DNA of 64,000 bases from Nematostella vectensis (GCF_932526225.1 NC_064047.1:1817027-1881026), one strand, 5' to 3'; shown: positions 6,044 to 64,000, counted from the stretch's first letter. Numbers and translations are program-made. Notes: generated from the letters alone by a model not told the origin.

Positions 6044-6414
6044 CTTGGGAATAGAAAGATAAGGGGCAACTTATAAATTACTCGTCACTTGTTAAATCGG
6101 TAAAATGTCACCAGTTTTACTTTCGGTAATTTGCGTAACAATATCTGATAATTTTTAACGGAAAACGCGAAAAATATTTCAAAATTGTAAAAGCAGTGTG
6201 TCTATTGGAAGTTTCTTTGAGGATGTGATGTGATAATTTAGAAAGGATGGCCTGTTAATAGATTCTTGTCTCTTGAGGTTTTCGTCGGTCCTCCCGAAAT
6301 TAACTGGTGACAATGCCGCCGCTTTAATTACTCGTCACTTTTAAACTACTCGTTGTAAATAACTCGTTACCTGTAAATGACTCGTCACTTGTAAACTACT
6401 CGTTGCTTGTTTAC

Positions 6415-10226: not shown

Positions 10227-10364
10227 CTGGATCTTCTGGTTGACAAAGAGCTCCTCCACGACACTCCTGTCTCTCTCGTGCAGGCCCGCATGATGGAGAC
10301 CGATACCAAACGACAACACGAGCTTAAGGTTACTGTCTCGCACAGCGTGGAGGACTTGCTCCAT
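10227..10364 (-). CDS. ASCC3: ASCC3 exon 26 (MEQVLHAVRDSNLKLVLSFGIGLHHAGLHERDRSVVEELFVNQKIQ)
   Basis: GIGxHHAGL motif. Acceptor ccatag| and donor CAG|GTCAGA. Confidence 0.85.
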
Positions 10365-10619
10365 CTATGGATCAATGTCAGTAATTAGTCATGGGGGTAC
10401 AAGGTCGTAGAGTAGAGTAGAGAGTAGAGCCCCGCCCTGGACTAGCATTATTAATTTATTGTTAAAAAACCGATAACTGCGGCATGGACACTGATGTCCG
10501 GAGAGGTTAGGTTAAAAGAAGAAGATGTTGAAAACCAATATGTATGCGCCACCGAAAGCCAAATCTGAATACGATCTATTCGAACACATGCTTGAAAGGC
10601 CATATCGCGTCACGCAAAA

Positions 10620-11115
10620 CCTACTTCCTCTTCCTGCATGTCACGTCACGTGATAGTAACCTCCTTTTTTGGGCGGTCACGTCACACAGTACTTACCTCC
10701 TCTCCTCCATTTCCGCCAGGTGATGTATACCCTCTCTCCACCATTTGACGTCACGTGATGATTACCTTTTCTTCCGGTAAGTGATGTCACGTGATTTTTA
10801 CCTTCTCCCTCTGAAGGTGACGTCACGTGATGCTTACCTCTCCTTCCGGCATGAGACGTCACGTGATGCTTACCTCCTCCCTCTGAAGGTGACGCCACGT
10901 GATGCTTACCTCCTCTTCAGGCATGTGATTCTAAACTCTTCTTCAGGCATGAGACGTCACGTGATGCTTATCTTCACTTTCTTAATGTGACGTTACATGA
11001 TGCTCACCTCCTTTTCCGGTAAGTGGCGTCACGTGATTCCTACCTCTTCTTCCAGTATGCGGTGTCACGTGATTTTGACCTTCACCCTCTGCATGTGACG
11101 TCGCGTGATGCTCAC
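10620..11115. repeat. About 60-bp minisatellite (about 8 copies) whose unit is the ASCC3 exon-25 donor junction (minus strand GAGGAG|GTAAGCATCACGTGACGTC)
   Basis: Every unit carries an AG|GTAAGC consensus donor plus a CACGTG E-box and a TGACGTCA CRE-like palindrome. The array abuts the real donor at 11115/11116. Confidence 0.8.
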
Positions 11116-11379
11116 CTCCTCTTCAGGCATGTGCAGCCATTGCTTGGGGTCATCCTGGGCGGCCAGGAAGGCGATCAAGTCCAGGGCTGTTAGTCTGGTC
11201 TGTCTTCTGGACGAGACGAAGACGAGGGTGGGCTTGGTCGGAGAGTGAATCCGGATCGCCTCGAAAGTTGGCTTGTTCATAGTAGCCATACGAGGGCAGT
11301 AATGCTTGCCGGGAAATCCTGTGATGTGAACCTCAAGAGGAACAGGGCGAACTGAAGGTCGGAAGTTGAACATACCAGC
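11116..11379 (-). CDS. ASCC3: ASCC3 exon 25 ([88 protein letters not shown])
   Basis: The [16 protein letters not shown] motif is conserved. Acceptor tccccaag| and donor GAG|GTGAGC. Confidence 0.9.
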
Positions 11380-12419: not shown

Positions 12420-12746
12420 GTCGACCACAAAGATAACTAGTATGAGATCTGCCAGCTCTGACTGACGCTCAGCCCAACAAACCAGTTGCATACTAGTTTT
12501 ACAGGTTAAAGAATCTACCTCTTTAATAATAACCAGATTGACTTGTTTGACATAGCTAAGCGTCTGCCAGCTCTGACTGATCCCAGCCCGACAAGCCAGT
12601 TGCATACTAGTTTTACATGTTTAAATATCTACTTCGTCAATAGTGAGCAGATTGAATTGTTTGACATAGCTACGCGTCTGCCAGCTCTGACTGATCCCAG
12701 CCCGACAAACAAATTGCATACTAGTTTTACAGTTTTAAGTATCTAC
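12420..12746. repeat. 120-bp tandem pseudo-copies (about 3 copies) of the 3' end of ASCC3 exon 23 plus its donor (…SWQTRSYVKQVNLLIIDE|GTAGAT)
   Basis: The minus-strand copies read SWQTLSYVKQFNLLTIDE|GTAGAT and ...IIKE|GTAGAT. Confidence 0.8.
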
Positions 12747-12900
12747 CTCGTCAATAATAAGCAGATTGACTTGTTTGACGTAGCTACGCGTCTGCCAGCT
12801 TCGACTGATGCCGTCCCACTTCTCCGGTGTCGTCACGATGAGGTCAGCCTGGCTAATGGAACGCGAGTCTGGTGTGACGTCACCCGTCAGTTCTATCACC
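12747..12900 (-). CDS. ASCC3: ASCC3 exon 23 ([52 protein letters not shown])
   Basis: Acceptor ccgttgccag| and donor GAG|GTAGAT. The downstream intron carries 2-3 pseudo-copies of this exon's 3' end plus donor. Confidence 0.85.
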
Positions 12901-13153: not shown

Positions 13154-13439
13154 CTGTAAAAGGACAAAACAATTCATCTGACCTTTGATTCTTTAAAATA
13201 AAACCTCCCACATGATATGCTACCCAAAGGCCGGTTCCTAGATGGCAGGTTAGCCTTAACACACGGATAAATCGGCTATCCCGACATTTAATTGTACAAA
13301 AAGCGCATCCATCCCTGACTTAGCGTTAGCATGCTTTCTAGGAATCCGGCCCAGTACTTCTAGTGCCTCGGTCATTACTCGGCATAGAAGTAATTTGAGA
13401 TGTGCCTCGTTATTATGAGGGCATGACTGGGTACTGGGT

Positions 13440-14095
13440 TCGGGAGTGACTCGATACTATTCGGGTGTGACTCGATACTATTCGGGAGTGACTCGATACA
13501 ATTCGGGAGTGACTCGGTACAATTCGGGAGTGACTCGGTACAATTCGGGAGTGACTTGGTACTATTTGGGAGTGACACGGTACAATTCGGGAGTGACTCG
13601 ATACAATTCGGGAGTGACTCGTTACAATTCGGGAGTGTATCGGTACGATTTGGGAGTGACTAGGTACAATTCGGGAGTGACTCGGTACAATCCGGTAGTG
13701 ACTCGTTACAATTTGGGAAGTGACTAGGTACTATTCGGGAGTGACTCGGTACAATTCGGGAGTGACTCGATACAATTCGGCAGTGAATAAGTACAATTCT
13801 GGAGTGACTAGACACAATTCGGCAGTGAATAAGTACAATTCAGGAGTGACTCGTTACAATTCGGGGAGTGACTCGTTACAATTCGGGGAGTGACTAGGTA
13901 CAATTCGGGGAGTGACTCGGTACTATTCGAGAGTAACTCGAGTTCGTATTATTTGGGAGTGACACGGTATTATTCCGGAGTGACTTGGTACTATTCGGCA
14001 GTGACCCGGTACTATTCGGCAGTGACTCGGTACTATTCGGCAGTGACTCGGTACTATTCGGCAGTGACCCGGTACCATTCGTGTGCATTTAACTG
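13440..14095. repeat. 21-30-bp minisatellite (GGGAGTGACTCGGTACAATTC)n, more than 20 copies, starting just 3' of the exon-21 donor
   Basis: Direct reading. The unit does not contain the junction. Confidence 0.8.
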
Positions 14096-14399: not shown

Positions 14400-15154
14400 T
14401 TGCGTGATTTCAAGTTGTGTCGCGTGATGTCACGGCCGTCTTACGTGGCCATACGTATCTGTACGAGGATTGGGTGCGTGGCTAGCTTTGTTGCGTGACG
14501 CAATGGCGTTGTATTGCGTTATTCCAAGCAATGTTGCGTGACGTCACAATGCTGTATTACGCAACCATATGTTGCGTGACGCCATGGTGCTGTATTGCGT
14601 GATTTCAATTAATGTTGCGTGACGTCACGGTATAGTATGGAATCACGGGTGGCCCTCTCAACCCTGAATTTCACTTGTTGGACGTATGTGAGCTTACTAG
14701 AAGCTCGTGTTCCTCAGTTCCAAGATGGGTCATTATTAATACATTAGGATTTTAAATGTGAAGCGCTTAGAACATGGTTGATATAAGCGCTACATAAATG
14801 TCAATTGAATTAATTAATTTAATTATTACGCGACCATACAGTGCCTGTATCTGTACGGGGTTATGTTGCGTGACGCCATGGTGCTGTATTGCGATGATTT
14901 TTAGTAGTGTTGCGTGACGTCACGGTGCAGTATTGCGTGACAATACAGTACCTGCATCTGCACGGGGTAGTGTGCGTGACGCCACGGTGTAATGTTTGAA
15001 TTCAAGTAGTGTTGTGTGACGTCACGGTGTAGTATTACGTGACAATACAGTACCTGTATCTGCACGGGGTTGTGTTGCGTGACCTAATGTTGCAGCATCG
15101 CGTGATTTCAAGTAGCATTGCGTGACATCACGGTGTAGTATTACGTGACCATAC
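14400..15154. repeat. 60/120-bp minisatellite (about 6 copies) built from the ASCC3 exon-20 donor junction (minus strand AACCCCGTGCAGATACAG|GTACTGTATTGTCACG, i.e. …NPVQTQ|GT)
   Basis: Each unit repeats the last 18 nt of the exon plus a GTA donor and a TGACGTCA motif. The array abuts the real donor at 15154/15155. Confidence 0.8.
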
Positions 15155-16387: not shown

Positions 16388-17560
16388 CTGAGATCATAAT
16401 GAAAGGGTGTATAATGTGAGATACGAACACATAATCAAGGGGTGTATAATGTGAGATACGAACACATAATCAAGGGGTGTATAATGTGAGATACGAACAC
16501 ATAATCAAGGGGTGTATAATGTGAGATACGAACACATAATCAAGGGGTGTATAATGTGAGATACGAACACATAATCAAGGGGTGTATAGTGTGAGATACG
16601 AACACATAATCAAGGGGTGTATAATGTGAGATACGAACACATAATCAAGGGGTGTATAGTGTGAGATACGAACACATAATCAAGGGGTGTATAGTGTGAG
16701 ATACGAACACATAATCAAGGGGTGTATGATGTGAGATACGAACACATAATCAAGGGGTGTATAATGTGAGATACGAACACATAATCAAGGGGTGTATAAT
16801 GTGAGATACGAACACATAATCAAGGGGTGTATAGTGTGAGATACGAACACATAATCAAGGGGTGTATAATGTGAGATACGAACACATAATCAAGGGGTGT
16901 ATAGTGTGAGATACGAACACATACTCAAGGAGTGTATAGTGTGAGATACGAACACATAATCAAGGGGTGTATGATGTGAGATACGAACACATAATCAAGG
17001 GGTGTATAATGTGAGATACGAACACATAATCAAGGGGTGTATAATGTGAGACACGAACACATAATCAAGGGGTGTATAGTGTGAGATACGAACACATAAT
17101 CAAGGGGTGTATAATGTGAGATACGAACACATAATCAAGGGGTGTATAGTGTGAGATACGAACACATAATCAAGGGGTGTATAATGTGAGATACGAACAC
17201 ATAATCAAGGGGTGTATAGTGTGAGATACGAACACATAATCAAGGGGTGTATAGTGTGAGATACGAACACATAATCAAGGGGTGTATGATGTGAGATACG
17301 AACACATAATCAAGGGGTGTATAATGTGAGACACGAACACATAATCAAGGGGTGTATAATGTGAGATACGAACACATAATCAAGGGGTGTATGATGTGAG
17401 ATACGAACACATAATCAAGGGGTGTATAATGTGAGATACGAACCCAAAATTAAAGGTTGTATAATGTGAGATACGAACACATAATCAAGGGGTGTAGAGT
17501 GTGAGATACGAACACATGATCAGGGATGTATGGTGTGAGATAGGAACTTAAGATCAGGGG
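16388..17560. repeat. 40-bp minisatellite (GGGGTGTATAATGTGAGATACGAACACATAATCAA), about 29 copies, filling about 85% of the intron between exons 19 and 18
   Basis: Direct reading. The unit resembles the last 20 nt of that intron (cattatgatctcag). Confidence 0.85.
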
Positions 17561-20339: not shown

Positions 20340-20882
20340 CGCCGTGTTAGTGAAGTTGGCTGGTCCTTACCTCGATAGTATCGAACTCGATGTAGAAGTG
20401 ACTGGTCGTGTTATCAAGGTCGGCTGGTCCTTACCTCAATAGTATCGAACTCGATGTAGAAGTTTCTGGTCGTGTTATCGAGGTCGGCTGATCCTTACCT
20501 CAATAGTATTGAACTCGATGTAGAAGTTACTAGTTGTGTTATCAAGGTCGGCTGGTCCTAACCTTAATAGTATCGAACTCGATGTAGAAATTTCTGTTTG
20601 TGTTATCAAGGTCGGCTGGTCCTTACCTCAATAGTATCGAACTCGATGTAGAAGTGACTGGTCGTGTTATCGAGGTCGGCTGGTCCTTACCTCAATAGTA
20701 TCGAACTCGATGTAGAAGTAACTAGTCGTGCTATCGAGGTCAGCTGGTCCTTACCTCAATAGTATCGAACTCGATGTAGAAGTTACTAGTTGTGTTATCG
20801 AGGTCGGCTGGTTTTTACCTCATTGGTATCGTACTCGATATAGAAGTGACTGCTCGTGGTCTCAAGGTCGCCTGGTCCTTAC
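20340..20882. repeat. 60-bp minisatellite (about 9 copies) built from the ASCC3 exon-15 donor junction (minus strand …TTCTACATCGAGTTCGATACTATTGAG|GTAAGGACCAGC)
   Basis: Units read FYIEFDTIE|GTAAGG, against the real exon end FYIKYDTIE|GTAAGG. Confidence 0.85.
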
Positions 20883-21047
20883 CTCTATAGTATCGTACTT
20901 GATATAGAAGTGACTGGCCGTTCTACCGAGGTCGGTGGCTGACAAGTAGCCTTGCTCCTCTGCAAATCTGATCATACGGGCCTTGTCCAGTTTACGAGCA
21001 GTCGACACTATCAGCTGCCGTCTGTAATTCTCGAGTGTCGGGTCATC
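20883..21047 (-). CDS. ASCC3: ASCC3 exon 15 (DDPTLENYRRQLIVSTARKLDKARMIRFAEEQGYLSATDLGRTASHFYIKYDTIE)
   Basis: Acceptor ttttcaag| and donor GAG|GTAAGG. The real donor is the first in a ladder of about 10 tandem donor copies. Confidence 0.75.
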
Positions 21048-21818: not shown

Positions 21819-21938
21819 CTCTTTATCCTTGTGAGGAATTCCATAGACTAGAGGGTTCTTGATCATTCGTATGTACAGGTAAGAGTAGCTCAGCCATTCC
21901 ACCGCTTCGTTTACATTAGTAACAGTACCAAGACAAAT
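21819..21938 (-). CDS. ASCC3: ASCC3 exon 14 ([40 protein letters not shown])
   Basis: Start of the winged-helix/Sec63 region. Acceptor cttgtag| and a weak donor GAG|GTTCGT. Phase 0 on both sides. Confidence 0.6.
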
Positions 21939-22400
21939 CTACAAGACAATGTATTACTTGAATGCGGCCTAGAAAGTCAAGTCTGAAAAAAAGGGGTGAT
22001 CATGGGATGTATAATAATCGTGTAGGGTCGAATAGTTATTCCACCGCTTCGTTTACATTAGTAACAGTACCAAGACAAATCTACAAGACAATGTATTAGT
22101 TGAATGCGGCCTAGAAAGTCAAGTCTAAAAAAAAAGGTTGATCATGGGATGTATACTAATCGTGTAGGGTCGAATAGTTATTCCACCGCTTCGTTTACAT
22201 TAGTAACAGTACCAAGACAAATCTACAAGACAATGTATTAGTTGAATGCGGCCTAGAAAGTCAAGTCTGAAAAAGGGGTGATCATGGGATGTATACTAAT
22301 CGTGTAGGGTCGAATAGTTATTCCACCGCTTCGTTTACATCAGTAACAGTACCAAGACAAATCTACAAGACAATGTATTATTAGTTTGGTGCGGCCCAAA
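21939..22400. repeat. 120-bp tandem repeat (about 4 copies) built from the ASCC3 exon-14 acceptor junction (minus strand ttgtcttgtag|ATTTGTCTTGGTACTGTTACTAATGTAAACGAAGCGGTGGAA)
   Basis: Each unit contains the acceptor plus the first about 45 nt of the exon. Confidence 0.85.
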
Positions 22401-27642: not shown

Positions 27643-27777
27643 CTGCTTGAGGGCGCTACCGTAGTCTGGGGCCTGCTCTGCCCTGAAGAGCATGGAGTCC
27701 CCCTGATTGGAAGCCATCTCTCTTAACGTCATGGCCGTCCGCACGGTGGCATTTCTAGCATGAACAAACACCATGAC
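27643..27777 (-). CDS. ASCC3: ASCC3 exon 11 (VMVFVHARNATVRTAMTLREMASNQGDSMLFRAEQAPDYGSALKQ)
   Basis: The VMVFVHARNATVRTA motif is conserved. Acceptor tctcttcag| and donor CAG|GTACTG. Confidence 0.85.
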
Positions 27778-27960
27778 CTGAAGAGACAAATAAATAATTA
27801 TAGAACGAACAAACACCATGACCTGAAGAGACAAATAATTCTAGCATGAACAAACACCCTGACCTGAAGAGACAAATAAATAATTATAGAACGAACAAAC
27901 ACCATGACCTGAAGAGACAAATAAATAATTATAGAACGAACAAACACAAACCTGAAAAGA
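27778..27960. repeat. 45-bp tandem repeat (about 4 copies) duplicating the ASCC3 exon-11 acceptor (minus strand ctataattatttatttgtctcttcag|GTCATGGTGTTTGTTC)
   Basis: Direct reading. Each unit has a full polypyrimidine-AG acceptor plus the first 16 exon nt. Confidence 0.85.
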
Positions 27961-28125
27961 TAAATGACTACGTAGATACCATTTTCGTAATCATCACTAC
28001 AATAATTATCATTATGATCACCGTCATCAAAATCGTTTTCTTGTATTCAGATCAGTATGTTTCCGGTATTTTCAGAACAATCACCGTCATGATGATCATC
28101 ATCGACGTGATCATGAACATTACCG

Positions 28126-28994: not shown

Positions 28995-29243
28995 CTGGTA
29001 GCCCTTCTCCACGTTTTCTGTGACCTTCTCATAGCAGATCTTATCCATCTCGTGCGCTTGCTGGAACGGGTTCAGCCCTTTCACCCCGATGAACGTCTGT
29101 CCGAGGGGGACTGGGCGAAAACGTGAGTCGAAGGCGAAAAGACCTTTGTACGGGTCCACCCTTAGGAAGTGTGCGACGTCCAGATAGTTAGGGAGAGTAG
29201 CAGACAGTCCGACAATGCGAATCATGGACTGCGAGGATAACAC
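28995..29243 (-). CDS. ASCC3: ASCC3 exon 10 (VLSSQSMIRIVGLSATLPNYLDVAHFLRVDPYKGLFAFDSRFRPVPLGQTFIGVKGLNPFQQAHEMDKICYEKVTENVEKGYQ)
   Basis: Helicase motif III (SAT) is present. Acceptor attgtag| and donor CAG|GTATAG. Confidence 0.85.
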
Positions 29244-30400
29244 CTACAATACATATTAAGATAAATTCCAACAGATGGTTAGGAAGAGTGGCAGATAGGC
29301 CGACAATGCAAATCCTAGACTGTGAGGACAAAACCTACAATACATATTAAGATAAATTCCAACAGACGGTTAGGGAGAGTGGCAGATAGGCCGACAATGC
29401 AAATCCTAGACTGTGAGGACAAAACCTACAATACATATTAAGATAAATTCCAACAGATGGTTAGGGAGAGTGGCAGATAGGCCGACAATGCAAATCCTAG
29501 ACTGTGAGGACAAAACCTACAATACATATTAAGATAAATTCCAACAGATGGTTAGGGAGAGTGGCAGATAGGCCGACAATGCAAATCCTAGACTGTGAGG
29601 ACAAAACCTACAATACATATTAAGATAAATTCCAACAGATGGTTAGGGAGAGTGGCAGATAGGCCGACAATGCAAATCCTAGACTGTGAGGACAAAACCT
29701 ACAATACATATTAAGATAAATTCCAACAGATGGTTAGGGAGAGTGGCAGATAGGCCGACAATGCAAATCCTAGACTGTGAGGACAAAACCTACAATACAT
29801 ATTAAGATAAATTCCAACAGATGGTTAGGGACAGTGGCAGATAGGCCGACAATGCAAATCCTAGACTGTGAGGACAAAACCTACAATACATATTAAGATA
29901 AATTCCAACAGATGGTTAGGGAGAGTGGCAGATAGGCCGACAATGCAAATCCTAGACTGTGAGGACAAAACCTACAATACATATTAAGATAAATTCCAAC
30001 AGATGGTTAGGGAGAGTGGCAGATAGGCCGACAATGCAAATCCTAGACTGTGAGGACAAAACCTACAATACATATTAAGATAAATTCCAACAGATGGTTA
30101 GGGAGAGTGGCAGATAGGCCGACAATGCAAATCCTAGACTGTGAGGACAAAACCTACAATACATATTAAGATAAATTCCAACAGATGGTTAGGGAGAGTG
30201 GCAGATAGGCCGACAATGCAAATCCTAGACTGTGAGGACAAAACCTACAATACATATTAAGATAAATTCCAACAGATGGTTAGGGACAGTGGCAGATAGG
30301 CCGACAATGCAAATCCTAGACTGTGAGGACAAAACCTACAATACATATTAAGATAAATTCCAACAGATGGTTAGGGAGAGTGGCAGATGGCCGACAAGGC
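29244..30400. repeat. 90-bp minisatellite (about 13 copies) built from the ASCC3 exon-10 acceptor junction (minus strand tatgtattgtag|GTTTTGTCCTCACAGTCTAGGATTTGCATTGTCGGCCTATCTGCCACTCTCCCTAACCATCTG)
   Basis: Unit = the last about 27 nt of the intron including the acceptor, plus about 63 nt homologous to the exon start (real: GTGTTATCCTCGCAGTCCATGATTCGCATTGTCGGACTGTCTGCTACTCTCCCTAACTATCTG). Confidence 0.85.
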
Positions 30401-30599
30401 AAATATTAAACATCCTCTGTCTTAGCCATTTTATCATCCTAGCAAAGCACCACTTTTATCGGCTAAATAAGGGGAATTAATGTCATATTTTAGATTGAAT
30501 TTGTTAAATAAAGAATCAAACTTTGTTTTTAGATGGCCTCTAGATGTCTTACTAACACATGAGAGATTAGCGAACAGCAAAACAAATAATGCAACGTCC

Positions 30600-30790
30600 T
30601 TGCTTAAAGCCTCAGGGATACTCGGGTTTTGCTCGGAAATGCCGATGATTTCCTGTTGTAACGTCCTCGCTATAAAAAGCCTCAGGGCTTTTCGGGATTT
30701 ACTCGGAAATGCCGATGATTACCTGTCGTAACGTCCTCGCTAAAAAGTCTCGGGACTAATCAGGGTTTACTCGGAAATGGCGATGATTAC
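30600..30790. repeat. 60-bp tandem copies (about 3 copies) of the ASCC3 exon-9 donor junction (minus strand GCGAGGACATTACGACAG|GTAATCATCGCCATTTCCGAG)
   Basis: Direct reading. One copy has its donor mutated to GAAATC. Confidence 0.8.
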
Positions 30791-30955
30791 CTGTCGTAAT
30801 GTCCTCGCCACAAGGCACTCAATGACGGAGCCACGGTCATCATGCAGCAAATGAACCTCGTCAATGATGAGTAGCTTGACAAGCTGAGCCAGCGCTACAT
30901 CTCCAGTGGACTTACGTGTGACAACATCCCACTTTTCCGGGGTAGTGACAAGCAT
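30791..30955 (-). CDS. ASCC3: ASCC3 exon 9, containing the DEVH box ([55 protein letters not shown])
   Basis: The DEVH motif and a TTPEKWD motif are present. Acceptor tgtcgcag| and donor CAG|GTAATC. Confidence 0.85.
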
Positions 30956-31103
30956 CTGCGACAGATCACGTGATTAGAGTGCTTGTCAATGGTTTTTGGA
31001 AAGCCTGAAAAATCAGGATTTGAAGAGGAGAATAGTATAATATGAAAGAGAGATGTAGACAATGTTTACATCTCTCATGACTAAAAAGGACGCTTGGTTA
31101 TAC

Positions 31104-32439: not shown

Positions 32440-33300
32440 AACACAGAACACGTGATCACAACAGAAGAACAATTGATCACAGCACAGAAAAAAGTGGTCA
32501 CAACGCAGAACAAGTCGTCATGACTTAAACAAGTGATCACAACACAGAACACGTGATCACAACAAAAACACGTGATCACAACAAAAACAAGTAATCACAA
32601 CAGAAGAACAATTGATCAAAACACAGAACAAGTGATCACAACAGAAGAACAATTGACCACAAAGCAGAAAAAGTGATCACAACACAGAATAATTCATCAC
32701 AAAGCAGAACAAGTGATCACAGCGCAGAAAAATACATTGGGTACAGTACAGGTTTGACTAAAAATCGCGCCATTTTCAAGTAATGTCGAGCTGTAGGAAG
32801 TTTTCATCACAGAGGGATCCATTCCACTGCCCGGAAACAAGTGGGCCAATCACGGCTAACATCATTTTAGCGGATTCCCTACCAGCCAATCAGGTTTCTT
32901 TACTGTCAAATGATTTGACAATTAGCTGTCATCGTGCACCCAAGAAATTTAAACAAATTTGCGAAGTTATTGGAAGTTTTGCTACAAAATTAGACTTTAT
33001 TTACTTGTTCTTTGTCTTTTTTTCGAAAAGTGCCGATGCCACAGAATTGTTTGGGGTGTAACTGCACAAGTGATCACTGGGCAGAAAAAGTGGTCACAAC
33101 GTACAAAAAGTGGTCACAACATAAGAACAAGTGATCACAATAAAAAAAAAACAAAGAAATCAGGATAAAGAAGCAAGTGATCAACACAGACACAGTAACA
33201 AGTGATTAACACCAAGTGATTACCACAGAGAACAAGGTGATTACCAGAGAACAAGGTGATAGCAACAAGAGAACAATTGATCATGATAAATAACAAGTGC
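32440..33300. repeat. Two blocks (32440-32720, 33060-33300) of about 30-bp repeats (ACAGAACAAGTGATCACAAC) around exon 6
   Basis: Direct reading. TGATCA-centred units resembling the intron 3' end tttatgatcactcgctccgttaccacag. Confidence 0.7.
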
Positions 33301-59047: not shown

Positions 59048-61339
59048 GTAAGAGAAGTGGATTATAGGGAGCTTGAAGCTCGAATCTGGGTTCCACTCTT
59101 TGTGCCTGGGGCTATATTGTGTATGTTTGTGGTGATTTTTATTTCGTACATCCAGTACATAGAATGAAGTGATGGCAGAAAGTGTCGAAAATGTGGGGAT
59201 GAACATGGTGGGTGGGTGCTAGTGAAAAAAAGTCAGGATTTCCATGATAGCGACAGTGGATGGGGAAAACTGAAACGTTTGTAATAATTAGGGTAGTGAG
59301 AATATAAAGAATATGCTTCGTATGTACGTGACGATCTAACTTATCTAGAAACATCTCTGAAATTGTTTATAAACCTCTAGATCAAGAATTAATTAAATGC
59401 GTGTTTTGTTTTGTAATAGCACTAAAAAGAAAAATAAACAATTTTGTGAAGATCATCAATTTCAAGCCATAGTGTGATGGACAAGAACTTAAAAGCAACA
59501 CATCATCTTTTGTTTCAAAGCAGACGTAAAAATGACTATTTCTCTACTTCGGCTTATTTTAGACCTTTTGATACGTTTGGTAAGCTGGGGTCTGATAGAC
59601 ACACCTTTAGAAATGTTCCCGAAGAGAAGACAGAAATGTGATATGCCATTTGCCTTTAAAAGACCTATCATTCGTTTTGAAACATGAGGTGGGGAGGAGG
59701 GCTGATTAACACTCTTTAATAAACAAAAACAGGTATCAAGCAGATGCTTGTCAATGTACACTTACTCATTCCCTGTTTGGGTTGAGAGCGTAAAATTCAA
59801 TTAAAACCAGGAAGCTTAGCCCAAGTGTGCCCCCTTATGGTAATGTCAGCAGTCAAGATAGGGGCTACTAGGTTACGCTCGGACAGACAAAACAAAAAGA
59901 ATGGAGCAATTAATAAGTTTTTAACTCTTTAACCGATAAAAGGTCAGAGGTGAGCTCGAGCTTGTAGAGATATTTATTTTATTTTGAGGCATCGAGGGAG
60001 TAGTACGGATGATGGTCTACACTGTGTGGAAACCCCAAAAACAGTGAAGATAAAGAAAAGAAGAAAAAAAGCCGGGAATAGTTAAATGCAAACCGTTGAA
60101 AAATATCAATTGGAATAAAGCCGCTCAAAAAAAAATCTAGCTTAGAATATAACTCGATTCACAGACCCATTTGCCCCTTAAGCTTTTTTTTTTGGCAATA
60201 TAGTAATTCCTAGAAATGCCATATTTGCCATATTCGCGTGACCATTGAAGGGAGTTGGATATAGCAGCAACTGGATCATAAACAATCCAAGTGTCACAGC
60301 CAGGACAGAGCAGAAAAACTTGCACGAAACACGATTAAGCATTCTATTAGTGTCTTACATTCAGTTTTGCATAAATTCATTCTGATATTGCATAAATGAT
60401 CCACGATATGAAGTCCAACGGCTTGCTTAGTAACAGCCTCTGGCATAGCCTCTGAGAGAACAATCTTGTCTAGTTCTTCGTTACGTCATTTCCTGTTTAC
60501 GATTGCGTAGGCGTGCCCAGTTCTCCTCCGGTCTGCCCCAAGGATGATGGTCGACGAAACGGCTTGAAGACATTTGGAAGTCATCAAGCCTCTGTTAGCG
60601 GTTGAATATCCTAAACGGCACTAAAATCCTTCCTCTGCTCAATACCTTTTCTTTCGCTGTGTGTATCATTTCTTATTTGTTCAAACTACAAGCGCATCTC
60701 AATGTTCCTTTTTTAAAGTTTATTGGATTACGTCATCGTGTGGTAAAAAATTTGCCTTTCAGATATTCGAAACCTGGCTTTTAATGTTTTAAAAACATGT
60801 TTGATGAGTCCAAGAAGAAATGGTTAAATGTTAACTCAAAAGAAGAGCTACGTCTTTTTTCGTGACGTGCTGACCCTATTAGTAAGCATTGTTGTATGTA
60901 TATGCGCCATTTGGAAAGAGTTAGTGATGCCGGCATATTTACAGCCTTTGAAAGGCCCCGTTAGGGGCTTAACCAGACAAGCTCATCTATCATATAGCGA
61001 TTTGTACGTCTCATTACATGAATTACGCTCATTTAGTTTAAACCTTTCGGCGTCGGCCTTTTGGTCAGTTTAAACTACCGAAGACGGTTATTACAGCAAT
61101 TAGTAACCCAAAAAGCCGCAGATTGGAGCAGATAGTTCCACATGGATGTATTTTGTTTCCTTTTTTGAGAGTGATTACACTCTAATAAATAGCATATTTC
61201 TAGTTACAGGGGCGTTTAAGGGTCAATGGGTAAGAGGTAGTGAAAGGCAGTGTGGGGGGACTTCATGTAAGATGGTTTGACCATTTAGTCGTTCGGTATT
61301 TGAGCAAATGTGTGATAATTCTGTTAATGCTTGAGGGTG

Positions 61340-62132
61340 CATTTTTGCCGCCATTTGTTCTGACACCTCTGTTACCATGTTTGCAAGCGCATGTTTCCCG
61401 CCATTTGTTCTGACACCGCTGTTTTCTGTTTGCAGGCGCATGTTACCTGCCATTTGTTCTTGTACCGCTGTTTTCATGTTTGCAGGCTCATGTTTCCCGC
61501 TATTTGTTATGAAACCGCTGTTTTCATGTTTGCAAGCGCATGTTTCCCACCTTTGTTCTGACACCGCTGTTTTCATGTTTGCAGGCGCATGTTTTCCTCC
61601 ATATGTTTGATACCGCTGTTATCATGTTTGCAGGCGCATGTTTCCCGCCATTTGTTCTGATACCACTGTTTTCATTTTTGCAAGCGCAAGTTTCCCAAAA
61701 TTTGTTCTTATACCGCTGTTATCATGTTTGCAGGCGCATGTTTGCTGCCATTTGTTCTGACACCGCTGTTTTCAAGTTTGCAGGCGCATGTTTCCCGCCT
61801 TTGTTCTGACACCACTGTTATCATGTTTGCAGGCGCATGTTTCCCGCTATTTGTTCTGACACCGCTGTTTTCATGTTTGCAGGCGCATGTTTTCCACCAT
61901 TTGTTATGACACCGCTGTTTTCATGTTTGCAAGCGCATGTTTCCCGCTATTTGTTCTGACACCGCTGTTTTCATGTTTGCAGGCGCATGTTTTCCACCAT
62001 TTGTTCTGACACCACTGTTATCATGTTTGCAGGCGCATGTTTCCCGCTATTTGTTCTGACACCGCTGTTTTCATGTTTGCAGGCGCATGTTTTCCACCAT
62101 TTGTTATGACACCGCTGTTATCATGTTTGCAG
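61340..62132. repeat. 50-bp minisatellite (about 15 copies) built from the TBX20 exon-3 acceptor junction (unit GCGCATGTTTCCCGCCATTTGTTCTGACACCGCTGTTTTCATGTTTGCAG)
   Basis: Each unit ends in the acceptor tcatgtttgcag| and restarts with the first 19 nt of exon 3 (GCGCATGTTTCCCGCCATT). The last unit is the real acceptor and exon. Confidence 0.9.
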
Positions 62133-62249
62133 GCGCATGTTTCCCGCCATTCGCGTGAAGGTGTCTGGTTTGGATCCCCATGCGCACTACATACTAGTGA
62201 TGGATGTAATACCGCTGGACGGCAAACGCTACAGATACGCATATCATAG
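62133..62249 (+). CDS. TBX20: TBX20 exon 3 ([39 protein letters not shown]-)
   Basis: RMFP...VSGLDP...[12 protein letters not shown] is the TBX20 signature. Acceptor tgtttgcag| and donor AG|GTAAGT. Confidence 0.9.
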
Positions 62250-62279
62250 GTAAGTTCCTAAGGGCAGTCGTCACACTGC

Positions 62280-62525
62280 AGGGCCGTAGCCAGCAAAAGC
62301 CACGTGAGGCATTCGCCTCGGTAAAATTTTGATGTTTAGTGTTTCACAATTGAAAAGTATGAGATAAAATACCTGCTTTTGTTGGATTTATCATCCAGTG
62401 GGTAGCTTTGCCTCGGTAAAATTTTGATGTTTAGTGTTTCACAATTGAAAAGTATGAGATAAAGTACCTGCTTTTGTTGGATTTATCATCCAGTGGGTAG
62501 CTTTGCCTCGGTAAAATTTTTATTC
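62280..62525. repeat. 120-bp tandem duplication (2 copies: gcctcggtaaaattttgatgtttagtgtttcacaattgaaaagtatgagataaa…) just 3' of TBX20 exon 3
   Basis: Direct reading. Confidence 0.8.
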
Positions 62526-62653
62526 TGGCTACAGGCCTGCTCTGCGATGCATGTTCTGCACGGAAGCAGCTTCTTGGCACAAAATGAATAATTTTACTTG
62601 GTGGTTTCCGTGGTGTTCGGCATTACTTAAATCCACCTCTTGGTTTATGCCAG

Positions 62654-62810
62654 TTCCAAGTGGGTGGTAGCGGGGAATGCAGACGCTCCTATGCCCGGGC
62701 GGGTCTATATTCACCCGGACTCTCCGGCTCTTGGGGAGGAATGGATGAGACAGATCGTGTCATTCGATAAAGTCAAGTTGACCAATAACGAGCTGGACCA
62801 ACAAGGACAT
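62654..62810 (+). CDS. TBX20: TBX20 exon 4 ([54 protein letters not shown])
   Basis: [18 protein letters not shown] matches the TBX20 sequence [18 protein letters not shown]. Acceptor tgccag| and donor CAT|GTGAGT. Confidence 0.9.
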
Positions 62811-62869
62811 GTGAGTGTTCATTGATAGCTAGGCATGATGTCCGCATGACAATATATGCTGATGCTGAT

Positions 62870-63600
62870 GCTGCTGCTGCTGCTGCTGATAATGGTGGTG
62901 GTGGTGATGGTGGTGGTGGTGGTGGTGGTGGTGGTGGTGGTGGTGGTGGTGGTGGTGGTGGTGGTGGTGGTGGTGGTGGTGGTGGTGGTGGTGGTGGTGG
63001 TGGCGATGGCGATGGCGATGGCGATGGCGATGGCGATGGCGATGGCGATGGCGATGGCGATGGCGATGGCGATGGCGATGGCGATGGCGATGGCGATGGC
63101 GATGGCGATGGCGATGGCGATGGCGATGGCGATGGCGATGGCGATGGCGATGGCGATGGCGATGGCGATGGCGATGGCGATGGCGATGGCGATGGCGATG
63201 GCGATGGCGATGGCGATGGCGATGGCGATGGCGATGGCGATGGCGATGGCGATGGCGATGGCGATGGCGATGGCGATGGCGATGGCGATGGCGATGGCGA
63301 TGGCGATGGCGATGGCGATGGCGATGGCGATGGCGATGGCGATGGCGATGGCGATGGCGATGGCGGTGGCGGTGGCGATGGCGATGGCGATGGCGATGGC
63401 GATGGCGATGGCGATGGCGATGGCGATGGCGATGGCGATGGCGATGGCGATGGCGATGGCGATGGCGATGGCGATGGCGATGGCGATGGCGATGGCGATG
63501 GCGATGGCGATGGCGATGGCGATGGTGATTGTGATGGTGATGGTGATGGTGATGGTGATGGTGGTCATGTTGTTGATGATGATGATAATGATGATGATGA
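62870..63600. repeat. Compound microsatellite (GCT)n-(GGT)n-(GGCGAT)n-(GGTGAT)n-(GAT)n, about 730 bp, in TBX20 intron 4
   Basis: Direct reading. All four long six-frame ORFs here are artefacts. Confidence 0.95.
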
Positions 63601-63622
63601 TATGCTTTTTCTTTGCAAATAG

Positions 63623-63787
63623 ATAATCCTCCACTCAATGCACAAGTACCAGCCACGGATTCACATCATCAGAAAGAAAGACACGAGCGAAGCCAGTATT
63701 GACATCGATCGACCTTGCTCGGAGAGGAAAACCTTTACATTTTCCGAAACCATCTTTACCACCGTCACCGCCTACCAAAATCAACAG
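63623..63787 (+). CDS. TBX20: TBX20 exon 5 ([55 protein letters not shown]); the gene continues beyond the window
   Basis: The MHKYQPR.HII.KKD and TAVTAYQNQ motifs are present. Acceptor caaatag| and donor CAG|GTAACT. Confidence 0.9.
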
Positions 63788-63960
63788 GTAACTTTGACAA
63801 CATCTACCATATAAAAAATCTGCACCATCGCCAAATATCTAATATGTATTTATCACCTTCACCGCCTATCAGAATTAACAGGTAACCATGACAATATAGT
63901 CACAGAAATAAACTTTACCACTGTCACCGCCTATCAAAACAAAAGTGGCAACATTGTTGT
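63788..63960. repeat. Degenerate tandem copies of the TBX20 exon-5 3' end plus donor (real ACCACCGTCACCGCCTACCAAAATCAACAG|GTAACT; copies CACCTTCACCGCCTATCAGAATTAACAG|GTAACC and ACCACTGTCACCGCCTATCAAAACAAAAGTGG)
   Basis: Direct reading. The array extends to the window edge. Confidence 0.7.
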
Positions 63961-64000
63961 TTTCCATTCATTTTGATGTGGTGAGGAAATCTCCAAATAA

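Follow-up and report, generated by a model that had tools for sequence, protein, structure and literature searches.

A splice-junction-spanning minisatellite in an ASCC3 intron of Nematostella vectensis, with E-box and CRE-like motifs as its probable passengers

Introduction

Tandem copies of a transcription factor motif inside an intron raise the question of whether the motifs were kept for binding or merely came along with whatever DNA was duplicated. The question is posed here by an array of E-box (CACGTG) and CRE-like palindromes in a helicase gene of the sea anemone Nematostella vectensis, found in a 64-kb stretch of DNA (hereafter the window) whose first-pass annotation proposed an intronic enhancer or a transcription factor sink. 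With a probability of about 0.8, the array is instead a near-neutral, junction-spanning minisatellite of the 'mirage' or F7 IVS7 type, in which the pseudo-donors are silent and the transcription factor motifs are passengers. The evidence comes from the anatomy of the array, from other arrays in the same gene and from comparison with known systems.

The array and its host intron

The host gene is the ASCC3 helicase, its exon translation matching proteins named ASCC3 in a protein search. It lies on the minus strand from 38921 to 3957, as delimited by tblastn with an intron-poor homologue. A crude spliced query, consisting of a 2012-aa translation assembled from the window, has its best match in N. 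vectensis EDO46714.1 / XP_001638777.1 (94% identity), followed by Actinia tenebrosa (72%). The locus DS469525.1 of assembly GCA_000209225.1 aligns to positions 954-41921 of the window at 99.6-99.9% DNA identity, and by coordinate conversion the array falls there at about 801,077-801,603. The ASCC3 span is ~35 kb in Nematostella vs ~18 kb in Actinia tenebrosa, and minisatellites make up a visible share of the extra intron length, with 63 TRF rows in the 64-kb window. Repeats also occupy an intron of a second gene in the window, a T-box gene (Tbx15/18/22-like) at 58800-64000 on the plus strand, where the sequence between two exons is mostly (TGG)37 and (TGGCGA)93 at 62893-63561. No Rfam match was found anywhere in the window, whose GC content is 42%, and no called gene was on record for the window ORFs looked up.

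The array occupies the donor-proximal part of a phase 0 intron (Table 1). The last 240 nt of this intron (10365-10604) are unique sequence, ending in the acceptor ...ttgatccatag/ATGGAG. Both EDO46714.1 and RefSeq XP_032219371.1 join HMPEEE to MEQVLH, which makes the donor of unit 1 the annotated donor, and the read-through peptide VSITRR is absent from both of these public gene models.

The first-pass annotation described a duplicated donor junction within a helicase intron, placed at 10620-11115 and built of units of about 60 bp. The duplication is borne out, unit 1 being the authentic ASCC3 junction, and a tandem array does stand at that place, but it extends from 10605 to 11131, reaching 16 nt into the exon, and its unit is 36 bp long. 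Fifteen such units, set in register in a unit table, run head-to-tail from 11131 down to 10605 on the minus strand, and their length falls inside the 10-160 bp range of the junction-spanning class. Exactly 36 bp are found in 12 of the 15; units 12 and 13 measure 35 and 34 bp, and unit 6 has suffered a 10-bp deletion that took out its E-box/CRE part. Motif spacings along the array, as given by a repeat search, are 36, 36, 36, 36, 62, 36, 36 and 36 bp, and the lone 62-bp spacing arises because one full unit adjoins the 26-bp unit 6.

Both exon and intron sequence are present in unit 1, which consists of 16 nt of exon (CATGCCTGAAGAGGAG) and 20 nt of intron (GTGAGCATCACGCGACGTCA). The exon-derived share, 11116-11131, is the end of the ASCC3 exon. 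This exon end is ancestral, as HMPE(E/A/T)E is followed by an intron at the same place in many metazoan ORFs and the orthologous junction of Actinia reads CACATGCCAGAAGAAGAG/GTGAG. Because the register begins in an ancestral exon, the array grew from the junction into the intron and was not inserted beside it.

The consensus of the 15 units is CATGCCGGAAGAGGAG/GTAAGCATCACGTGACGTCA. Its purine-rich half occurs in two alternating subtypes, A and B (CATGCC.GAAGAGGAG and CCTTCAGAGGGAGGAG), and the alternation gives rise to a 72-bp higher-order repeat. TRF accordingly reports both a period of 36 at 10746-11053 (65% matches, score 175) and a period of 72 at 10746-11133 (68% matches, score 293). Pairwise identity between units is ~65-77%. 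The most alike are units 7-10 (32/36 positions for 7 vs 9, 31/36 for 8 vs 10), the nearest unit to unit 1 is unit 7 (33/36), and the most decayed are the distal units 12-15. Such a similarity pattern is typical of turnover in which array edges are left out of homogenisation, and would suggest the same history here.

The array is absent from the orthologous intron of Actinia tenebrosa, whose 614 nt contain no tandem repeat, no CACGTG and no CRE. Two further metazoans with the same intron position likewise lack the array and its composite motif in the orthologous intron. In a metazoan with 90% amino-acid identity in the exon, the orthologous intron opens with (CTCACCTTAC)n right after the donor, a tract that is the reverse complement of GGTGAG/GGTAAG-like donor motifs. 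Within Nematostella, the window and GCA_000209225.1 do not differ over the 1.1 kb around the array, and no length variation of the array is seen between these two assemblies, whose near-identity makes the comparison a weak test.

Table 1. Positions of the gene features, motifs and junction-spanning arrays in the window. A slash marks the splice junction.
Feature	Position	Strand	Details	Evidence
ASCC3 exon (AGMFNFRPS...)	11116..11379	-	exon end conserved in Actinia	translation, tblastn, both gene models
Authentic 5' splice site GAG/GTGAGC	11110..11118, GT at 11115-11114	-	phase 0	
Intron, 751 nt	10365..11115	-	phase 0; array in first 511 nt	
Downstream ASCC3 exon (MEQVLHAVRD...VNQKIQ)	10227..10364	-		tblastn, translation, gene model
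Unit 6, shortened to 26 bp	10926..10951	-		unit table; TRF 26-bp row
Three consecutive pseudo-donors GAG/GTAAGC, units 7-9	10832..10912; G of GT 10909, 10873, 10837	-	each 7/9	
Strongest pseudo-donor GAG/GTAAGT, unit 13	10691..10699, GT at 10696	-	8/9	
Pseudo-donor GAG/GTGAGC, unit 4	11002..11010, GT at 11007	-	same 9-mer as authentic donor	
First in-frame stop, TGA inside unit-2 E-box (ATC ACG TGA)	11065..11067	-	ORF end	
Nine CACGTG E-boxes	11066-71, 11030-35, 10958-63, 10896-901, 10860-65, 10824-29, 10788-93, 10752-57, 10647-52	.	span 10647..11071	
Perfect CRE TGACGTCA	10818..10825	.	first of only two in array	
Perfect CRE TGACGTCA	10746..10753	.	second of only two in array	
Array A	12448-12809		114 bp x 3.2; donor ...IIDE/GTAGAT; 68 nt exon in unit	
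Array B	20343-20935		64 bp x 9.3; donor ...DTIE/GTAAGG; 36 nt exon in unit	
Array C	30593-30808		68 bp x 3.2; donor ...TLRQ/GTAATC; ~19 nt exon in unit	
Array L	6329-6410		18 bp x 4.4; donor TTTACAG/GTAAAC; ~8 nt exon in unit	
Array N	14824-15154		102 bp x 3.2; donor GCAGACACAG/GTATGG; exon sequence present in unit	
Array D	29181-30404		91 bp x 13.5; acceptor TTGTAG/GTTTTG; 63 nt exon in unit	
Array E	21896-22380		142 bp x 3.4; acceptor TTGTAG/ATTTGT; ~51 nt exon in unit	
Array F	27753-27965		45 bp x 4.7; acceptor CTTCAG/GTCATGG; 16 nt exon in unit	

Junction-spanning arrays elsewhere in ASCC3

Eight more ASCC3 arrays span a splice junction when read on the minus strand, with units of 18-142 bp in 3-13.5 copies and with unit sequences that are mutually unrelated (Table 1). 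Together with the flagged array they make nine, six at donors and three at acceptors, and both public gene models use the authentic junction at every one of them. Their number was compared with a null that places each seed duplication, of unit length u, with equal probability at any intronic or junction-spanning position, given ~60 junctions and 22.8 kb of intron. Nine of 19 arrays span a junction, where 1.96 are expected (~4.6x, P ~1e-5), and doubling every null probability still gives P ~3e-3. Because array formation at junctions occurs regardless of the sequence found there, the transcription factor motifs of the flagged array need no functional explanation.

Some of the arrays have features of their own. 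Array D holds ~12 extra upstream copies (98% alike) of an acceptor with 63 nt of exon, and the use of any of these upstream acceptors would shift the frame because 91 bp is not a multiple of 3. Its copy number is 13.5 in the window vs ~8.5 units in GCA_000209225.1 (455 bp). Array G (16395-17547) similarly has 33 units in the window vs ~18 in that assembly (~522 bp); the gap in both cases may be true VNTR variation or may come from collapse in the Sanger assembly of 2007. With its 35-bp units, array G adjoins an acceptor without including exon sequence, ending 7 nt before it. A comparable case is found in ASCC3 of Actinia tenebrosa, where a 22-bp x 11.5 array ends at ...GATTACTAG/G, again with no exon included, and the anchoring of arrays at intron ends may thus extend beyond Nematostella.

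The history that would best account for the flagged array begins with the tandem duplication into the intron of a 36-bp segment, 16 nt from the exon end and 20 nt from the intron start. Expansion would have followed by slippage or unequal exchange, in part as 72-bp double units, and then decay. The units would have inherited the content of the junction, namely a purine-rich exon end, a donor GT(A/G)AGC and an ACGT-rich, E-box/CRE-like stretch. The array would then be a tolerated by-product of a duplication process that recurs at the splice junctions of this gene; we infer both the slippage mechanism and the neutrality of the array.

E-box and CRE motifs

The proposal of an intronic enhancer or transcription factor sink holds that the eight to nine T-flanked E-boxes (TCACGTGA) and the overlapping CRE half-sites would recruit bHLH-ZIP/bZIP factors, either raising ASCC3 transcription or titrating the factors. 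Genic minisatellites that bind transcription factors are known from the INS VNTR, the HRAS1 minisatellite and SLC6A4 STin2, which have binding or reporter evidence and allele-dependent expression. The ASCC3 array resembles them in repeating a short factor-binding motif inside a genic minisatellite. It differs in offering motif presence alone, which the origin of the unit explains. For the array, this proposal is very unlikely, and each indirect test of it came out neutral or adverse.

The clustering on which the proposal relies is pronounced for E-boxes. The 527-bp array contains nine CACGTG sites, vs 12 in the other 63.5 kb of the window. Eight of the nine have the T-flanked form TCACGTGA, the type preferred by USF and MITF/TFE, which occurs only four times in those 63.5 kb. 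Allowing up to one mismatch, the composite CACGTGACGTC has 10 matches in 64 kb, all inside 10642-11107, where shuffles give 0.45 expected, and none in the window outside the array. The CRE component is weak, consisting of two perfect sites and half-sites; eight further perfect CREs occur elsewhere in the window, four of them in one other minisatellite.

Several particulars of the first-pass annotation change when the units are read individually. A 5' splice-site consensus is indeed joined in the consensus unit to an E-box that overlaps a CRE-like palindrome, but the 19-mer GTAAGCATCACGTGACGTC, said to be held by every unit, is exact in just two of the 15; it occurs with at most one mismatch in five units, at most two in six and at most three in nine. 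Where the annotation counted eight tandem sites, the array has nine CACGTG, eight of them TCACGTGA, and only two perfect CREs. The real donor context, GAG/GTGAGCATCACGCGACGTCAC, was quoted correctly and was thought to carry the motif already; unit 1 nevertheless reads CACGCG and CGACGTCA, and so has no E-box and a CRE at 7/8. That the array amplified a pre-existing site is accordingly doubtful, since the boundary units 1 and 15 both lack CACGTG, an absence that also speaks against the enhancer or sink. The change from CACGCG to CACGTG is a CpG transition, and the E-box may have originated within the array, spreading later.

Conservation within the array could favor a binding function, as the best-conserved 10-nt window of the unit is ATCACGTGAC, at 90% vs 71% for the rest (mismatch ratio rest/core 2.9). 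The same statistic, calculated for the eight other arrays of the window, is 2.5-6.6 in the seven with any best-window mismatch. A well-kept core is the norm for arrays of this window, including those without such motifs, and the argument that a conserved core implies selection was dropped because 2.9 falls inside this range. The best-kept cores of the arrays at 13439-14081, 32440-32729 and 10605-11131 (AGTGAC, TGATCA and ATCACGTGAC) are all TGA(C/T)-type half-palindromes. The idea that GTGAC/GTCAC cores are common to many arrays was also abandoned, ~6/30 consensus units against ~3 expected, counted by eye, not being significant.

Both CpG dinucleotides of the core rank with the best-kept columns (45/48 cells), and CpG o/e is 0.97 in the array vs 0.83 in the gene body. 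Protection or selection could explain why these CpGs persist in an old array far inside a gene body. This retention is the single observation that leans in this direction, and does so weakly; the whole window is only mildly CpG-depleted, and the CpG o/e profiles are not decisive about methylation. Methylation of the central CpG impairs binding by CREB, USF and Myc-type factors, and the binding of CREB or E-box factors would be impaired if gene-body methylation holds for this array. The array lies ~28 kb inside an active gene body, and CpG methylation is common at such positions in Nematostella, gene bodies of this species often being methylated (PMC3975063). Nematostella enhancers also favor developmental regulators as their targets, a preference described in the same report (PMC3975063), while ASCC3 is of the housekeeping type. 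The lack of any trace of the array in Actinia argues further against an enhancer or sink, and the eight sister arrays make a motif-based explanation unnecessary.

Motifs of the same kind occur elsewhere in the gene. A second array with an ACGT core, at 14489-15154, has units of 43 and 102 bp (TTGCGTGACG(T/C)CA(C/T)GGTG) and includes array N. It contains four perfect CREs, more than the flagged array, and a 12-nt palindrome, CGTGACGTCACG. A lone TCACGTGA is found at 30966-30973, 10 nt upstream of an ASCC3 exon acceptor, where it overlaps a branch-point-like CTAAT.

Pseudo-donors and splicing

Donor sites were scored over nine positions against the U1-complementary consensus CAG/GTAAGT and listed at 6/9 or above. 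The authentic donor, GAG/GTGAGC, scores 6/9. The array copies reiterate the splice-site consensus in 11 pseudo-donors that score at least 6/9, of which four exceed the score of the authentic site and one repeats its 9-mer. All 11 would introduce a premature stop, as would any donor from unit 3 on. The GT of unit 2 (AAG/GTCAAA) stays below 6/9, and as read from the sequence this site alone would give an in-frame insertion, of 12 aa.

A splicing-level element could be built from such sites. Pseudo-donors that bind U1, each with a GAR-rich, enhancer-like tract ahead of it, would raise local U1 snRNP occupancy, and the outcome could be a reinforcement of the weaker authentic donor, a suppression of premature polyadenylation or an NMD-coupled down-regulation through decoys. 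The number and strength of the pseudo-donors would suit this role, as would the premature stop in every decoy product, and the array RNA is more stably folded than shuffles (z = -3.8), which could modulate access to the sites. Copying a donor nevertheless yields such sites automatically, and the z-score is to be expected because self-complementary octamers stand in tandem. The acceptor-spanning arrays D, E and F cannot act in this manner, decoy use is not seen in the gene models, Actinia lacks the array, and in F7 the pseudo-sites are simply ignored (PMC1557585). Taken together, these points leave a splicing-level element very improbable.

For the junction-spanning minisatellite, the spliceosome would be expected to pick the most upstream donor, that of unit 1, with the downstream copies staying silent; the use of a pseudo-donor would add an in-frame stop and lead to nonsense-mediated decay. 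The gene models and the likeness to F7 both suggest that the pseudo-donors are silent in vivo. In F7 the most upstream donor alone is spliced, even where pseudo-sites have higher consensus values, a behavior described as an 'oriented scanning' rule, and in experiments on F7 perfect-consensus sites did start to compete (PMC1557585). Such competition speaks against silence in ASCC3, where four pseudo-donors match U1 better than the authentic donor. An antisense reading, in which the plus-strand unit resembles a polypyrimidine tract followed by a CAG/G acceptor, was discarded; it is merely the reverse complement of the purine-rich exon end and donor, and no evidence for an antisense gene was found.

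That the array derives from a dispersed repeat family or a transposable element, a piece of which inserted beside the donor, is scarcely credible: the 11-mer TTGCGTGACGC of the CRE-rich array at 14489-15154 does recur, on the other strand, at the distal edge of the flagged array (10607-10617), but the register starts inside conserved coding sequence and hence nothing was inserted, a repeat search found no terminal inverted repeats flanking the array, the composite is confined to the array within 64 kb, two exact-match scans of a metagenome collection, one with the junction 35-mer and one with the 20-mer composite, gave no match, and the 14.8-15.2 kb array itself copies its own donor junction.

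Comparison with known junction arrays

Minisatellites that span a splice junction have been described in F7 IVS7 (a 37-bp VNTR), IFI6 (6-16), CBS IVS13, LMNB2 and PDGFA intron 4 (Borensztajn et al., 2006; PMC1557585), precedents in which splicing is confined to the authentic site. The F7 VNTR is the closest in layout. Its first monomer spans the exon-intron boundary and its donor is reiterated down the intron, the unit lengths are 37 bp there and 36 bp here, and the most upstream donor is the one used, in the case of ASCC3 in the gene models. The two arrays differ in several respects: F7 monomers are near-identical and length-polymorphic, whereas the ASCC3 units are ~65-77% alike and show no polymorphism between two assemblies; the F7 pseudo-sites are identical to the real site, whereas those of ASCC3 vary from dead sites to ones that surpass the real site; and the exon contributes 4 nt to the unit in F7 and 16 nt in ASCC3.

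Amphioxus 'mirages' have been reported from Adh3, globins, TnC and PGBD5; they occur at 5' as well as 3' boundaries, and splicing apparently proceeds undisturbed (PMC3087553; PMC3902484). Each is a tandem duplication that repeats the junction at one or the other boundary, units measure 10-160 bp and a gene holds several such arrays, a description that fits the nine ASCC3 arrays. The Adh3 'mirages' show somatic and allelic length instability. The host there is a cephalochordate and here a cnidarian, and in the literature searched no paper was found that describes such junction arrays in Nematostella.

A related process is the Rogers model, in which introns are gained or extended by tandem duplication across an AG/GT proto-splice site (Hellsten et al., 2011; PMC3265369). 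The ASCC3 array shares with this model a tandem duplication that includes AGGT and a duplicated part that is spliced out. It differs in that no new intron was created; an ancient, conserved ASCC3 intron was instead lengthened from ~240 nt to 751 nt.

Implications

On its own the flagged array carries little weight, as it adds length to a single intron in a housekeeping helicase gene and carries E-box/CRE-like palindromes by chance. It does offer a caution, in that the DNA that was copied can account fully for tandem 'binding sites' in a minisatellite. The architecture is already known, and the clustering of arrays at junctions in a cnidarian appears to be the more interesting lead. That Nematostella has a process by which minisatellites are seeded or preserved at splice junctions, with the flagged array as one instance, can be put forward only tentatively and is rather less than an even bet.

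Nine splice-site-reiterating arrays in one gene confront the spliceosome with up to 13 extra acceptors (array D) and 11 pseudo-donors (the flagged array), and the gene models splice cleanly. ASCC3 is therefore a natural test bed for how the spliceosome of an early-branching animal chooses among identical or stronger sites, a choice that concerns 'oriented scanning' for donors and exon definition for acceptors. Array D in particular puts 3' splice-site and exon definition to a stringent natural test. The arrays also bear on how junction duplications lengthen or create introns. If the clustering is genome-wide, it would add a cnidarian to the hosts of the 'mirage' phenomenon, known to date from amphioxus and a few human genes, and its cause would be either a duplication coupled to transcription or to splicing, or retention, in which the selected junction unit re-seeds its array.
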